Below are positions 41,945-59,890 of a stretch of DNA of 64,000 nucleotides, piece after piece. The position numbers and the translations under genes were made by a program. The notes under the pieces are model-generated. The model searched no databases, was not told the DNA's origin, and saw nothing but the letters and a program-made list of their open reading frames with translations. Numbering within the stretch: the stretch's first letter is position 1; the number at the start of each line of letters is the position of its first letter. This DNA comes from Octopus sinensis (Eukaryota), in assembly GCF_006345805.1 (NCBI RefSeq), contig NC_042998.1, forward strand, positions 143,840,001-143,904,000, read 5' to 3'.

Positions 41945-43002
41945 TGCCCTCGAATTCTCCTGCACCATTTCCAACACTTCCGTCAACATTTCGGTCAACA
42001 TACACAACTCCACTCTCACTACCTCCATCTACTACAAACACACCGACTCATACCTCAACTTCTCCTCCTCCCACCCTACCCACACCAAGCTCTCCATCCC
42101 CTACTCCCAGTTCCTCCGTTTACTGCATCTCCTGCTCTTTCTGTCCTTCTCTGTACATCGGGCAAACGAGACGCCGCTTGGCTGACCGGTTTGTGAAACA
42201 CCTCCGAGACATTAGATTCGTCAACGACATCCTGGTATCGCGCCCTTTCCGCTTTACCGGTCATTCATTATAACACCTGTCCGTGTTCGGATTGTCTTTG
42301 CACAGGGGCCATCCGGACTCCCGCCTTCGCCGTGAACAGGAATTAATCTCACTTCACTCCTTTGTACCATATGGACTCAACTCCCCTCTCCTCTTCATGT
42401 GACTCACCTCCTCTCCTCTCTTCATCTCAGACCTACTTCCTCTCTTTACTCCTACCCACATTCTCCTGTCATCGATACCCTCCACCCTATACATCCCACT
42501 CCCACAAACCCCATCCTACCCCCTCGTCCTCACCCTAAACCCACACCCCCAACACCGCCACACCACCCACACACCACCATACCACATCACACCACTCCAC
42601 ACGCACTAGCACTGACCACTTCCCAGCACCCACACAATCATCCACACACCCACACATTACAGATGCACCCACTTAAACCCGCACACGTCAAAGCCACCAT
42701 CCCCTACTCACACGCACACACTTATACACTCTCACATACACACGCACGCACACCTTCGTTCTGGGATTACTAATACTTTATTATCTCCCCTTCTTCCTAA
42801 CTTTCCCGTATAAATACCTTTATCCAACCAGCTGCCATGATTGACCGCTAGTTCCAAAAGTTTTTCTCTTCTCTCTCTGTATATTTCATCGTGTTCCTTT
42901 CTGTTGAAGAATGTAAGATCGAAACATAAAAGACTTTCTCACCTTCCCGAGCGTTAAACTATTACACCTGTCTTCTCTTTTGTTTTCTGTAAATTTCAAC
43001 TA
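41945..43002 (+). mobile_element. Penelope-like element (Neptune/Poseidon type), internally deleted: RT thumb, GIY-YIG and pLTR
   Basis: TSIYYKHTDSYLNFSSSHPTHTKLSIPYSQFLRL is joined directly to VYCISCSFCPSLYIGQTRRRLADRFVKH. A C-rich 3' region ends at (TA)n. Confidence 0.9.
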
Positions 43003-43085
43003 TATATGTGTGTGTATATATATATATATATATATATTATATATATATATATATAATATATATATATATATATATATATATATAT

Positions 43086-44395
43086 AAGGAGAATTCATGA
43101 AAAAACAAAAGACGAAGACAGGTGGTGTAGACAACAAACAGATGTATTAGTTTAACGCTCGGGAAATGAAAAAGCCTTTAACGTTTCCAGCCTACGCTCT
43201 TCCACAGAAAGAAAGAAACAAACAAGGAGAGTAAATAAAGAATGTGTAGTGGCTAGCGATCTATCATGGTGAAAGCCGGACAGAAGGGTCACACAGGAGA
43301 GCTAGGAAGAAGGGGAGATAATAAAGTAGTGGTGATCCCAAAATGATGGTGCGCTTGCGTGTGTATAAGAGAGTATGGCTGGTGACCTTGACGTGTGCGT
43401 GTGTGTAGGTGTGAAGATGTGGGGCTGGGAAGTGGTTAGTGCTAGTGTGTGCGTGGTGGTGTGATGTGATGGGATGTGTTGTAGTGGTGTATGGTGTGGT
43501 GATGTGTGGTGTGGTGTGATAGTGTTGGGAGGTGGGAAAAGCAAGGGTGGGGGTGTGGTTAGGATGAGGGTGGGGTATGTGGGCAGGCAGAAGATGGGGT
43601 AGAGGTGGATATGAGGGAGTGGGTGTAAGGGATGGGGTGGGTGGGATAGGAAGGATAGGTAAGGTGGGGTTGGAATGTGTAGGGGTGGGTGGGGTTACGA
43701 GGGAGGGAGTGACGATGAAGAGGGAAGGAGAAGGTGGGTAGGGGTGAAGAGAAGAGAGAACGAGAGTAGGAGTGAAGAGAAGAAGTAGGAGTCGGAGCAA
43801 GAGAGGAGAAGTGAGTGGGAGGAAGTAGGTGTGAGGGGAGGAGAGTTGAGCCCATGAGGCACAAAGGAGCGAAGAGAGAAGATTAATCCGTTTTCATGGC
43901 GCAAATGGGAGTCAGGATGGGCCCTGTGCAAGGACAACCCGAACACGGACAGATGTTGCAAAGAGTGACCGGTAGAGCGGAAATGGCGCGATACCGGGGT
44001 GTCATTGCCGAGTCGGATGTCTCGGAGGTGTTCCGCGAACCGGTCAGCCAAGCAGCGTTCCGTTTGCCCGATATATAGAGAAGGGCAGAGAGAGAGCAGG
44101 AGATGCAGTAGATGACATTGGTAGAAGTGCAGGTGAAGGAGTCGGTGATGGGTGCCGGTGAGTAGGGTGGTGTTGGAAAGGTAAGAGCAAGTGCGGCAGC
44201 GTGGGCGGGAGCAGGGGAACGAGCCGGGTTGGGAGATTGGGTTAGGGAAGAAGCTGTGGACCGATAGGTCTCGTGGGTTGTGGGCTCATTTGAAGGAGGG
44301 GAAGGGTCGGTTAGAGAAGATGTGCGAAGTGGAGGGGTTGGACTGGAGTCGCCGAAAGGCTCGAGAATGGGGCTTTGGAGAGGTAGGGTTGTCAA
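43086..44395 (-). mobile_element. Penelope-like element of the same family, 5'-truncated: Cys-rich linker, GIY-YIG and pLTR
   Basis: CSRPRCRTC linker, FTCTSTNVIYCISC, LYIGQTER.LADRFAEH and LIFSLRSFVPHGLN; inverted homology to 42120-43002. Confidence 0.9.
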
Positions 44396-45615
44396 CCCAT
44401 AAATAATGCGGTTTTTTCAATTGCATGGACTAAAGGTCAGAGGGGGACGGGATAAACTACTTGCATCAACTTGCTATGAAGGCAGGTAGTAATTTTATCC
44501 TGTACTTATTCTTAGTGCAAGTTCTGAAGAGTGCAGTTTGAGTTAAACAGTTATTTTTTCAAAGGGGCATATTCGGCATATTTTGCTTTATGAGTTCAAT
44601 AAAGACAACAACGCAACGGATTGTGCAAGGAATATTAATGCAGTATATGGGGATCGGACAATAAGCGTAAGCTAGTGTCAACGGTGATTCCAGAAATCCC
44701 GAGCCAGAAACTACAACCTAGAAGATGAGCCTCGTCCTGGAAGATCTGTAGAGCTCGATGAGGACGTTCTGCAAACCCTAGATGAACAAGATCCCATCGT
44801 AAGTGTTGAGGAACTACCAGAGAAGCATGCATTTGGTCATTCGACTATTCATTGACACCTGCGTGCCATCGGAAAAGTCAGCAAATTGGGTTAATGAGTT
44901 CCTCACAAGCTTTCCGAGTCCAATTGCACGCAGTGAGTGAATGTGTATTCTTCATTGCTGTCACGTCTCACGAATGAACCTTTTTAGGACCGAATAGTGA
45001 CTGGTAACGAGAAATGGATTCTCTATAAAAATATCAAGCGCTGAAGAAATTGGGTAGGGAAAGGAGAAACACCGGCACCCCAGACTAAAGAAGGTTTGCA
45101 CCTACGTAAGGTGTTGTTATCTGTTTAGTGGGAGAAGAAAGGTTTAGTCCACTTTCAACTTATAAACCCAAACCAAACGATTACAAAGATCTAGTGCAAG
45201 AAGCTTAAGCGGCTTAAGTCAGCGCTTGAAGAAAAACGATCATTTTTGGTTTCAAGACGAACAGTGTTCTTCCATCAGGATAATGCTCGGCCACATACAG
45301 CGGGATGACATTCCAAAAGCTGAATGGGAAATGATGCCCCACCCACCATATTCGCCGGACATTGCTCCATCTTATCATTTATTCTGCAGTCTTCAAAATT
45401 ATTTGGACGAAAAAAATATGAATTCTGTAGACGAGGTCAGAATAGTACTGGAGGAGTACTTTTCGTCACGAACAAGTGAATTTTGCAAGTCTACCAGATA
45501 GATAGAAGAGCATTGTAGAAAATGAGGGAGAGTATATTTTAGATTGAAAACGAACCTTGTTTATCTTAATTTTGAAAAATAAAAGTAACGAAAAACGCAT
45601 TATGGGATGACCCAA
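44391..45615 (+). mobile_element. mariner transposon with pseudogenised transposase
   Basis: HIRHILLYEF, LEDEPRPGR, VPHK, RIVTGNEKWILY, FHQDNARPH and HPPYSPDIAPS motifs with stops and frameshifts. Right TIR ...gcattatgggatgacccaa|TA; left TIR clipped. Confidence 0.92.
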
Positions 45616-45624
45616 TATATATTC

Positions 45625-45835
45625 TTCTATTCTTTTACTTGTTTCAGTCATTTGACTGCGGCCATTCTGGAGCACCACCTTTAGTCGAACAAATTGATCC
45701 CAGGACTTATTCTTTGTAGGCCTAATACTTATTCTATCGGTCTCTTTTGCTGAACCGCTAAGTTACGAGTATGTAAACACACACCATCGGTTGTCAAGCG
45801 ATGGTGGGGGGACAAACACAGACACACAAATATAT
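45625..45835 (-). mobile_element. SINE 3' half; related copies near 37950-38130 and 41010-41310
   Basis: Minus strand ends ggtggtgctccagaatggccgcagtcaaatgactgaaacaagtaaaagaata. Confidence 0.75.
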
Positions 45836-45956
45836 ACATACACACACACACACACAGACACACACATACACACACACACACATATATATATATATATGTA
45901 TATATATATATATATATGTGTGTGTGTGTGTGTGTGTGTATACATACACACAAATA

Positions 45957-58475: not shown

Positions 58476-58703
58476 AAAAGGATAAGATCGTTATTCAAAT
58501 AGCAATTTATCTAGTGGCTAGCATGGGAATAAAAAACTTCAGAGGTAATAATTATTATTAAAATTATAACTTAGGGTATCTAAGAGATACCTCCACGCTG
58601 GAAATAGCAGCCAGACTTGACTCTAAAACCACATTTAATATTCATACAGCACCAGGAGAGAAGACAAAAAGGCAAAATAAACTAGCAAAAAAATTACTGG
58701 ATA

Positions 58704-58761
58704 ATTCCAGATCCCGGATTTCTGGCTCTGCATAAGAAATGCTTAGCCTCATCAGTGGAAT
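58704..58761 (-). ncRNA. Type I hammerhead ribozyme motif
   Basis: Minus strand: attcca CTGATGA ggct-aagcat-ttctt-atgc-ag-agcc A GAAA tcc-g-gga TC tggaat; 6 bp stem I and AUC triplet. Confidence 0.8.
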
Positions 58762-59039
58762 ATACGCAGTACATAAATACAAATATATATATAAATACAA
58801 ATATATATATATATATATATATATATATATATATATATACAACATACGAATACTTACATATATGAACGTATACATACATATACATGGTCGTGTACATACG
58901 TGCATAAATTATAATTATATATATATATGTGTGTGTGTTTGTGTACATATATTTGTGTGTGTACACATACCCATGTACATATATACATATACATTCAAAT
59001 ATATATGTGTGTATATATGTATATATATATTTTTTTTTT

Positions 59040-59615
59040 TTTTATTTTATTTTATCTAGTTTCAGCTCACGAGCTGTAGCCATGCTGGGGCACCGCCATT
59101 TGGTGTTGCTACATGATTTTACTTCACGAATGCTTTTTAGCAATTGTCATTTGGTGCATGAGAGAGTTCGATGCAACTGCCCTCATCTGCACCTCCTGCC
59201 GTGAAGTTGGTTCATCTGGGACACCTGACAGGAAGATATCCAGTTTTATTTTAAAGGCATCTGCATCCACCCCATGCAGGTCTCTCAGGTTCTTCGGGAG
59301 GATATTGAAGAGCTGTGGGCCTCTGAAGCCCAGGCTATCACAGTAACTTCCCCTACATCTTGATGGCAAATTTGGAGTCCTTGGCACCATGCAGTGGCGC
59401 CCAGTTCTAGCATTTGTGTAACTCTCGATGCCAAAGTTTGGGACAAGTCCTTCTAGGATCTTCCAGATGTATATCATGCCATATCTTTCTCGCCTATGCT
59501 CTAAGGAATAGAGTCTTAATCTCTTGAGTCTTTCCCAGTAGCTTATATGCTGCACAGAGGCTATCTTCTTCGTGTAGCTTCGTTGGATTGCCTCAAGTTC
59601 TGTGATTAACTTGAC
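59040..59615 (-). mobile_element. CR1-group LINE 3' end, 5'-truncated
   Basis: ELEAIQRSYTKKI...ISYWERLKRLRLYSLEHRRERY.MIYIWKIL...FKIKLDIFLSGVPDEP, followed by a (TAAAA)n/poly-A tail. Confidence 0.88.
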
Positions 59616-59702
59616 ATATATATGTATATATGTATATATATATACATATATGTATATATGTATATATATATGCATACACATATATGCACATACATATATA
59701 TA

Positions 59703-59890
59703 TAGGGAGAGTTTACGAAAAAAACAAAAGACGAAGACAGGTGTTGTACAAAACAAACAGATGTATTAGTATAACGCTCAGGAATAGAAAAAGTCTTTTA
59801 CGTTTCGAGCCTATGCTCTTCTACAGAAAGGGACACAGAAAAAACAAGGAGAGAAAAAAATGTGTGTAGTGGCTAACGATCTATCATGGC
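59703..59890 (-). mobile_element. Solo PLE pLTR fragment with variant hammerhead (59795-59830)
   Basis: Homologous to 43086-43270. Minus strand reads cttt CTGTAGA A gagc-atag-gctc GAAA cg TA aaag. Confidence 0.75.

Follow-up and report, generated by a model that had tools for sequence, protein, structure and literature searches.

Hammerhead ribozymes in Penelope-like retroelements (PLEs), the targeting of TA repeats and PLE-derived retrozymes are already published. In metazoans, truncated PLEs give rise to single and opposite-strand pairs of minimal hammerheads, or min-HHRs (Cervera and de la Pena, 2014; PMC4209133). For the Hydra-clade PLEs, the part of the account by Craig et al. (2021; PMC8557442) drawn on here describes inverted truncated copies, an optional tail, and Hydra elements with hammerheads in (TA)n. 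The mechanism is taken from Poseidon PAc of Anolis, which nicks AT-rich DNA on both strands and whose tail is defined by two internal RT starts on an uncleaved RNA template (Frangieh et al., 2024; PMC11167929). Non-autonomous retrozymes derived from PLEs have also been described in animals (Cervera and de la Pena, 2020; PMC7229834; Li et al., 2026; bioRxiv 10.64898/2026.07.22.740005).

The locus compared here with these systems lies in a window of 64,000 nucleotides, the whole stretch of DNA analysed. It is probable (roughly 0.8) that the motifs in it are type I hammerhead sequences, four of them on elements with PLE coding remnants and the other four likely 5′-truncated pseudo-LTR (pLTR) ends of further PLEs inserted in the same TA tracts.

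Eight hammerhead motifs among TA tracts

An earlier note had proposed eight minimal type I hammerheads from several families, in (TA)n-flanked modules. The coordinates of all eight were recovered (42897, 43176, 48906, 48997, 51258, 58023, 58704, and 59795), as were the stem III letters, except at 42897, which reads ACAU and not ACGU. The number of families is four, because 48906/48997 and 58704 are related to each other. The type I core (C3-U4-G5-A6-N7-G8-A9, G12-A13-A14, A15.1-U16.1, H17) is intact in 48906, 48997, 51258, 58023, and 58704, while 42897, 43176, and 59795 read CUGUNGA, with A6 changed to U in the three copies of what is called family A below. The label "minimal" suits these three only: absence of loop 3 and a base between positions 9 and 10.1, which are min-HHR traits, are found in family A alone, and the other five have a palindromic stem III of 3–4 bp and are not min-HHRs. 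The following proposals were borne out: a link to PLEs, type I topology, a stem III that is palindromic and dimer-prone, and insertion targeted to (TA)n. The cluster of motifs tracks the TA runs, 41 of the window's 54 runs of (TA)6 or more falling in 41600–61000. A ninth, decayed motif (35816–35864) lies outside the interval first described. The strict descriptor, which demands CUGANGA and three stems, matches at:

48964–48906, minus strand
48997–49055, plus strand
51270–51307, plus strand
58761–58704, minus strand

Elements with PLE coding sequence

Family A, which is probably Neptune-like rather than Nematis-like, comprises the following features:

41946..43010, plus strand: copy 1, a 5′-truncated, internally deleted Neptune-like PLE end (tblastn; homology to 43138–44110)
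42897..42932, plus strand: decayed minimal type I hammerhead motif of copy 1, core CUGUUGA (A6 to U)
43088..44372, minus strand: copy 2, a Neptune-like PLE end (tblastn, E 3e-28)
43175..43212, minus strand: minimal type I hammerhead motif of copy 2, core CUGUGGA (A6 to U)
59706..59889, minus strand: copy 3, a 185-bp 5′-truncated end, 85% identical to 43088–43269
59830–59795, minus strand: minimal hammerhead of copy 3, core CUGUAGA

Copy 1 consists of an RT thumb remnant (41946–42110), the C-terminal half of a GIY-YIG domain (42118–42390), a 3′ UTR, and a tail reaching (TA)n at 43015; against RT and GIY-YIG proteins, tblastn gives E values of 9e-10 and 2e-24. Its motif has an additional A after A9 and damaged stems II and III, and the predicted cut falls after 42928. 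Copy 2 carries a zinc finger and a frameshifted GIY-YIG (44372–43836), a 3′ UTR, and a tail to (TA)n at 43086, and its motif has a G-G mismatch at the base of stem II. The two copies stand tail to tail on a single TA tract. The earlier description as flanked modules has to be amended here, since 42897 and 43176 adjoin PLE coding remnants and border on (TA)n at the 3′ side alone. The Neptune-like traits in the window are remnants of the CX2-5CxxC linker and of the GIY-YIG CxxC, with RT placed before the endonuclease. The linker and CxxC are present in 8/8 long relatives and PADKG in 7/8; long relatives give RT Pfam matches and, in 5/7, GIY-YIG Pfam matches. Among the window fragments themselves, the PLE pieces found no Pfam match except GIY-YIG at E 0.066. 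A word-based protein search with the 43857–44285 piece produced 196 candidates, none significant; a full HMMER protein search for this piece found 1667. In viral contigs, there were no matches to the family A DNA pattern and no Neptune-like loci among 48 candidates. The motifs at 42897, 43176, and 59795 thus mark 3′ ends that belong to a single Neptune-like PLE family, as the homology between the copies and their links to GIY-YIG and RT thumb remnants show.

The closest comparison for family A is with the min-HHRs of metazoan PLEs (Cervera and de la Pena, 2014; PMC4209133). In common with them, it lacks loop 3, has a palindromic 15.2–16.2, an extra base between 9 and 10.1, a G10.1-C11.1 pair, and a stem I of 4–5 bp, and occurs as single copies and as opposite-strand pairs 100–700 bp apart. 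It differs in having U6 in place of A6 in 3/3 copies and a stem II of 4 bp instead of 7–8. Hammerhead variants of PLEs are reportedly treated in work of Lunse et al. from 2017, where a U6 core may be described.

The second group of coding remnants, family C, surrounds 51258:

50021..50178, plus strand: C-terminal end of a Hydra-clade PLE endonuclease, the 5′-truncated first unit (tblastn)
51258..51320, plus strand: pLTR hammerhead of a Hydra-clade PLE (strict descriptor; covariance model)
51347–51371 and 51420–51445, plus strand: twin hairpins of putative role, common to Hydra-clade 5′ UTRs
51480..52328, plus strand: N-terminal 282 codons of a Hydra-clade PLE ORF, with RWK and DKT motifs, broken at (TA)n

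The first piece starts at (TA)n and is most similar to residues 642–711 of protein P0001 (E 3e-14), which is also the best match for the ORF that follows the motif. The core occupies 51274–51280, stem III is CUC-A-GAG (CUCAGAG is found in 5 of 48 distinct hammerheads of Hydra relatives), and the predicted cut falls after 51303, which leaves 176 nt to the ATG. A covariance model built from Hydra relatives alone, namely the 18 of 65 matches with a 7-nt stem III region, found 51269–51308 with 36.5 bits (E 6e-9); both sides change in 12 of 14 pairs, in 18 rows that had been pre-selected by a descriptor demanding pairing. The 65 matches come from 53 of 78 Hydra-like loci with a strict hammerhead and all lie on the ORF strand, versus 0–2 in 20 shuffles; variants at position 6 were absent among the 78 loci. 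(TA)n stands about 145 nt above the hammerhead in the Hydra element UTR. From the arrangement of the coding pieces, 51258 is read as a pseudo-LTR hammerhead, with the endonuclease end of one unit upstream and the RT start of the next downstream.

The Hydra-clade PLEs of Craig et al. (2021; PMC8557442) share with the 50021–52328 element the RWK motif, DKG changed to DKT, a pLTR hammerhead in partial tandem, and (TA)n targets, and with its relatives the CxCX5C linker and a C-terminal endonuclease. RWK occurs in 113 and DKT in 117 of 120 relatives, DKG in none, and the linker with a C-terminal endonuclease in 98 of 103 full-length relatives, of which region the window retains the last 50 codons only. 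The element differs from the typical ones of that account in being a broken copy. Its spacer from stop to hammerhead is 1.1 kb, against about 90–300 nt in most relatives (one other has about 1.1 kb), and the passages of that account drawn on here contain no mention of a twin 5′ UTR hairpin. Compared with Poseidon PAc, it belongs to another clade, and its hammerhead lies 176 nt before the ORF start, which that of PAc overlaps (PMC11167929).

ORF-less pieces and their rival readings

The remaining motifs, together with two further remnants, lie on pieces without coding sequence:

35816..36048, plus strand: ninth, decayed Hydra-type hammerhead with worn twin hairpins (covariance model, 16.5 bits, E 0.016)
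57786..58273, plus strand: family D, a T-rich ORF-less piece between TA tracts (relaxed scan, covariance model)
48690..48972, minus strand: long arm of family B, with the hammerhead at 48964–48906, then 222 nt to (TA)n
48989..49180, plus strand: short arm of family B, with the hammerhead at 48997–49055, then 130 nt to (TA)n
58477..58782, minus strand: family E, related to B, with the hammerhead at 58761–58704, then 233 nt to (TA)n
26141..26285, strand unassigned: rearranged family E 3′ end without hammerhead, 26205–26285 being inverted relative to the last 65 nt

The 35816 remnant, with a hammerhead at 35816–35864 and hairpins at 35901 and 36024, does not align recognizably with the 51258 pLTR (158 of 500 shuffles did as well). 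The single copy of family D in the window has its hammerhead at 58023–58106, about 170 nt from (TA)n, with an intact core, a long stem II with one mismatch, and a relaxed-scan score of 10; the Hydra-relative model gives 15.7 bits at 58022–58107 (E 0.03). The arms of family B are inverted, head to head, and the short one stops 90 nt short of the 3′ end of the long one, whose hammerhead has an intact core and stem III UUGG-A-CCAA. Family E has an intact core, a bulged A before G12, and stem III UCC-G-GGA; it stands tail to tail with D on a single TA tract. The rearrangement at 26141..26285 looks like twin priming.

B and E have two 3′ ends each, 80–90 nt apart. An inverted pair, alternative 3′ ends with an optional extension, and TA targets are PLE insertion marks, and all are present in the 48906/58704 group; the PLE extension in PMC8557442 is 30–40 bp, shorter than the 80–90 nt of B and E. 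B and E resemble non-LTR retrozymes in being short, non-coding, PLE-related, high-copy, and furnished with a type I hammerhead, and differ in their single or inverted copies, without tandem units or a circular junction seen, and in alternative 3′ ends of the PLE type (PMC7229834; bioRxiv 10.64898/2026.07.22.740005). In contigs of run X1, the summed depth of E falls from 684,000 to 20,000 between 58554 and 58518. There is no drop at the predicted cut (339,000 versus 322,000 on either side); the 5′ half goes from 339,000 to 37,000, of which truncation and mapping loss are both possible causes, and a dip of similar size at 58602–58625 coincides with indels in the window's copy. At least six opposite-strand joints at different places were seen among the joints listed (15 of 36). 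The contigs reveal only single-site variants at paired positions within E. B/E DNA patterns gave 4 viral and 2 bacterial matches, none with a hammerhead, and the region above E gave plain microsatellite matches only.

It is barely credible that AT-rich repeat DNA produced these folds by chance. The motifs of family A do score individually at the level of chance in the relaxed scan (3.5 at 42897, 6.0 at 43176, 6.5 at 59795), and are recognized as putative hammerheads by family membership, layout, and position; the monomers give weak folding z-scores (−0.6 to −2.9); and Rfam, the check suggested for the window, returned no hammerhead among the matches listed (150 of 199), which were miRNA models only, on microsatellites and hairpins, nor any up to E 10 in 58640–58790 or 48860–49100. 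Against this, the descriptor check came out positively, with 4 strict matches versus a mean of 0.06 and a maximum of 1 in 100 local dinucleotide shuffles, and a relaxed score of 10 is reached by 4 window matches versus 0.07 in 15 shuffles. The motif has the same place in 53 of 78 Hydra relatives, and in family A 19/19 core and stem I columns are invariant versus 55/95 flanking ones, position 7 varying, a count from three copies with columns chosen post hoc and a core without CpG. For the ORF-less pieces to be non-LTR retrozyme monomers, that is, tandem repeats of 170–400 nt that the hammerhead would resolve into circles before re-insertion, is very unlikely. The sizes (280–490 bp) and type I folds are compatible, monomers are frequent in some retrozyme families (bioRxiv 10.64898/2026.07.22.740005), and two runs, tentatively regarded as RNA although they may contain DNA, supply 362 and 176 contigs that cover E; yet no head-to-tail copies occur in the window, there is no go-back joint on E among the joints listed (15 of 36), and the ends differ and are not circular permutations.

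The note had also proposed a separate, microsatellite-targeting non-autonomous system. This fails for four of the eight motifs, 42897, 43176, and 59795 being assigned to Neptune-like PLE ends and 51258 to a Hydra-clade pLTR, and survives as a rival for 48906, 48997, and 58704. No ORF was tied to 48906/48997, 58023, and 58704; PLE coding remnants adjoin 42897, 43176, and 51258. Near B, D, and E, the window yielded no PLE coding remnants (best E 0.03–0.04, chance level), so a non-autonomous master is possible for them. The B/E group would then be a short derivative of a PLE pLTR, with the hammerhead near its 5′ end followed by 150–230 nt, copied in trans by PLE RT and endonuclease into (TA)n, which we regard as unlikely. 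In its favor, there is no ORF nearby, both B arms and E begin about 12–30 nt above the core with a common 5′ sequence, as could be the case in an element of fixed length, B and E keep one layout with differing paired stems, an extended stem I is predicted to fold in E, and run X1 contributes 6764 contigs that match E, a more distant organism another 1097. The common start counts against the PLE-end reading; the Hydra twin hairpin is absent from the tails of B, D, and E, and B is not detected by the Hydra covariance model. On the other side, a truncated PLE leaves an identical layout, as copy 3 of family A does; contigs of several runs go on beyond the 5′ stem with microsatellite-like sequence that the window also has, and therefore the 5′ "(TA)n flank" of B/E may be internal UTR; the Hydra UTR likewise has (TA)n above its hammerhead; and the 26141 copy has no hammerhead. 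Also unlikely is the combined proposal of B/E as a dispersed hammerhead element without an ORF, present in many non-tandem copies that share one 5′ end and copied in trans by PLE enzymes into (TA)n as a SINE-like counterpart of retrozymes, together with selection on the Neptune-like U6 core and a Hydra twin hairpin marking two RT starts.

Proposed copying mechanism and significance

The reading of the motifs as PLE ends starts from their position, strand, and family membership, their links to GIY-YIG and RT remnants, the TA junctions, and the inverted and tail-to-tail pairs. By analogy with published PLE work, the GIY-YIG endonuclease would nick AT-rich DNA, and RT would start inside uncleaved RNA, 90–230 nt downstream of the hammerhead, at either of two sites, hence the pair of alternative 3′ ends. 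It would copy through the hammerhead and mostly halt early, so that most copies would be short ends without an ORF. The inverted pairs would arise where both strands are primed, and every TA tract may become a landing site for whichever element comes next. Ribozyme cleavage in the parent tandem elements would take place in dimers that pair through the palindromic stem III. The window copies, which have no same-sense neighbor of their own family, are likely inert relics.

In practical terms, the result is repeat annotation, that is, new families within a known class. It also supplies test material on the role of PLE hammerheads, in the form of neighboring families whose cores are intact, variant, or dimer-prone. 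A candidate RT start signal is the twin hairpin that lies next to Hydra insertion ends. If B/E prove ORF-less at the master level, PLE-dependent non-autonomous elements would extend from tandem retrozymes to dispersed, microsatellite-targeted ones.

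Detection and setting of the hammerhead motifs

All eight hammerhead-like motifs claimed by the earlier note in the interval 42897-59830 were found in the window. They are named by start position and sorted into families A (42897, 43176 and 59795, copies 1 to 3, with an ACGU-type stem III), B (48906 and 48997), C (51258), D (58023) and E (58704; hammerhead 58761-58704, - strand). Their description as minimal holds for family A, in the sense of the accessible text of PMC4209133, and fails for the other five, in which stem III is palindromic (3-4 bp). The strict type I descriptor proposed as a check matched 48906, 48997, 51258 and 58704 (four matches versus 0.06 in 100 local shuffles); with one change allowed at position 3 or 6 there were seven matches, six of them inside the interval, versus 0.47 in shuffles. 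The Rfam hammerhead models, proposed likewise, gave no hammerhead among the matches listed for the window or the B and E stretches. A mismatch-tolerant scan returned four matches scoring at least 10 (0.07 in 15 shuffles); 58023, with an intact core, scored 10, the ACGU-type motifs scored 3.5-6.5, within chance-level matches, and 51258 was absent from the matches listed. In predicted homodimer folds, stem III of B, C and E pairs between molecules.

The window DNA is AT-rich and animal. A repeat pile begins at about 41.6 kb, and 41 of the 54 (TA)6+ runs counted across the window lie in 41600-61000.

Neighbouring features in the window
~7640-7705, - strand: hammerhead-like match with A9 changed to G (score 9.5, relaxed scan)
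26141-26285: hammerhead-less, internally inverted E end
30136-31866, + strand: large ORF of a GATAD2/p66 gene (Pfam P66_CC and GATA domains), 10 kb upstream of the repeat pile
35901-36048 and 51347-51445: twin hairpin regions
41757-41950, - strand: further T-rich end that leads into (TA)n and faces family A copy 1 in head-to-head orientation
44395-45620, + strand: decayed, presumably mariner-like transposon with terminal inverted repeats, adjoining the 5′ end of family A copy 2
46876-47702 and 47793-48621: two 830-bp units between TA tracts, 99.8% identical
52355-53540 and 53582-54747: tandem 1.2-kb duplication, 98% identical, starting at the break point of the Hydra ORF
59127-59600, - strand: ORF remnant, which we take to resemble the C-terminal end of a LINE reverse transcriptase (RT)

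The mariner-like label comes from the translation; neither this translation nor the 59127-59600 remnant had a Pfam match. Each 830-bp unit holds an internal 147-bp duplication and (ACAG)n, and we assume a similarity to non-autonomous Helitron-type elements. The 1.2-kb duplication, which contains a 54-bp internal repeat, may be genuine or an assembly artefact. Within the T-rich end, a highly degenerate hammerhead-like stretch (~41890-41950) was missed by every scan and showed no kinship to the other families in sequence comparison.

Coding remnants and hairpins of families A and C

By window self-comparison, the three family A motifs are copies of one repeat. GIY-YIG endonuclease remnants lie 510 and 630 nt upstream of two of them (tblastn E 2e-24 and 3e-28), and one copy additionally retains an RT thumb remnant (E 9e-10). 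Among long relatives, RVT_1 was found in 7/7 scanned (four above the curated cut-off), GIY-YIG in 5/7, PADKG in 7/8 and the cysteine linker in 8/8. We call family A a Neptune-like Penelope-like element (PLE), its assignment to Neptune and not Nematis being our assumption. Every copy stops at (TA)n, 86-94 nt past the predicted cut. Across the three copies, all 19 columns of the core and stem I are unchanged, compared with 55/95 in the flanks; core position 6 is U in every copy, and stems II and III are damaged in two. A natural A6C variant cleaves slowly, according to the accessible text of PMC3088659; a limited search of partly accessible hammerhead literature found no A6U variant.

The family C ORF starting at 51480 has 674 longer relatives, whose C-termini align to 50021-50178 and N-termini to 51480-52316, one protein (P0001) being the top match at both. 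Since one protein spans the pieces on either side of 51258, the hammerhead lies in the pseudo-LTR of a partial tandem. The window ORF contains RWK and DKT, as do 113/120 and 117/120 relatives, respectively; CxCX5C is present in 98/103 full-length relatives. These motifs characterise the Hydra clade, for which PMC8557442 describes hammerheads and (TA)n as target; judged by sequence, family C carries Hydra-clade marks.

A comparison set of 78 Hydra-like metagenome loci was drawn from the best 80 of 359. A strict hammerhead occurs in 53 of them (65 matches, ORF strand throughout, versus 0-2 in 20 shuffles), 83-390 nt from cut to ATG, mostly 138-179 (n=31; 176 nt in the window). A covariance model of 18 of these 65 hammerheads, window sequences left out, matched 51269-51308 (E 6e-9), a ninth, decayed motif at 35816 (E 0.016) and, more weakly, 58022-58107 in D (E 0.029) and 58705-58760 in E (E 1); no family A or B motif was matched. 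Both-side changes were seen in 12/14 pairs, a count inflated by row selection. One locus hammerhead (L037, 2394-2436, +) shows U3-A8 core covariation.

In Hydra-clade elements (L001-L078), a hairpin of the GCUC...GAGCACU type occurs twice between cut and ATG: at least two copies in 31/49 loci, one in 12/49 and none in 6/49 (shuffles 0.02). Ten (TA)5+ junctions fall directly upstream of hairpin 1 or 2, six at 32-56 nt past the cut, three at 95-112 and one at 140. This twin hairpin, of which the accessible PLE literature yielded no mention, is a candidate RT start signal.

The ORF-less ends

No PLE coding remnant lies near B, D or E within the window. B is related to E (z 8.9, 0/200 shuffles as good; tails alone, 1/1000). 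The two arms of B, an inverted pair, begin at almost the same site and terminate 130 and 222 nt past the cut; D is a lone T-rich piece whose hammerhead shows a weak likeness to the Hydra type. Contigs aligned to E at likeness 80 numbered 6764 from run X1 and 1097 from a more distant organism; two runs presumed to be RNA contributed 362 and 176. Contig depth does not measure copy number here. The predominant 3′ end lies near 58550, an 80-nt extension being rare. Depth does not drop at the predicted cut and falls ninefold over the 5′ half, which may reflect truncation or mapping loss. Among the variants listed (40 of 82), none is at a core position. At 58725, G-U replaces a G-C pair in 58% of X1 depth; the loop base of stem III differs in 12%, an additional A follows A9 in 5-21%, and for one stem I change (17%) no partner change is listed. 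Of the joints listed (15 of 36), six connect opposite strands, at different positions, and none is of the go-back type. Some contigs run on into microsatellite-like letters.

Origin of the hammerhead-bearing ends

The ORF-less modules had been proposed to form a separate retroelement system. Against this stands family A copy 3, a 185-bp end with 85% identity to copy 2, which directly illustrates how 5′ truncation yields an ORF-less module. In the accessible text of the cited papers, PLE insertions are mostly 5′-truncated and in part tandem or inverted (PMC8557442); a PLE protein makes nicks in both strands of AT-rich DNA, and reverse transcription, templated by uncleaved RNA, has two internal starts that set an optional tail (PMC11167929). 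This insertion process would have produced all of these hammerhead-bearing ends, with TA tracts probably targeted repeatedly; family A copies 1 and 2 share one TA tract, tail to tail, as do D and E. Lone copies would not cleave, because a same-sense partner is absent. That the motifs of all families are PLE ends made by PLE insertion is given a probability of about 0.8; such an origin is nearly certain for A and C and probable for B, D and E.

Earlier publications describe hammerheads within PLE ends, pairs on opposite strands, TA targeting and retrozymes derived from PLEs, and the accessible part of a squid genome paper reports 235 hammerhead loci (PMC6962438). No study of the present families was found in the literature on hammerheads or ribozymes in octopus or cephalopods. 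The families are additions to an already described class of element.
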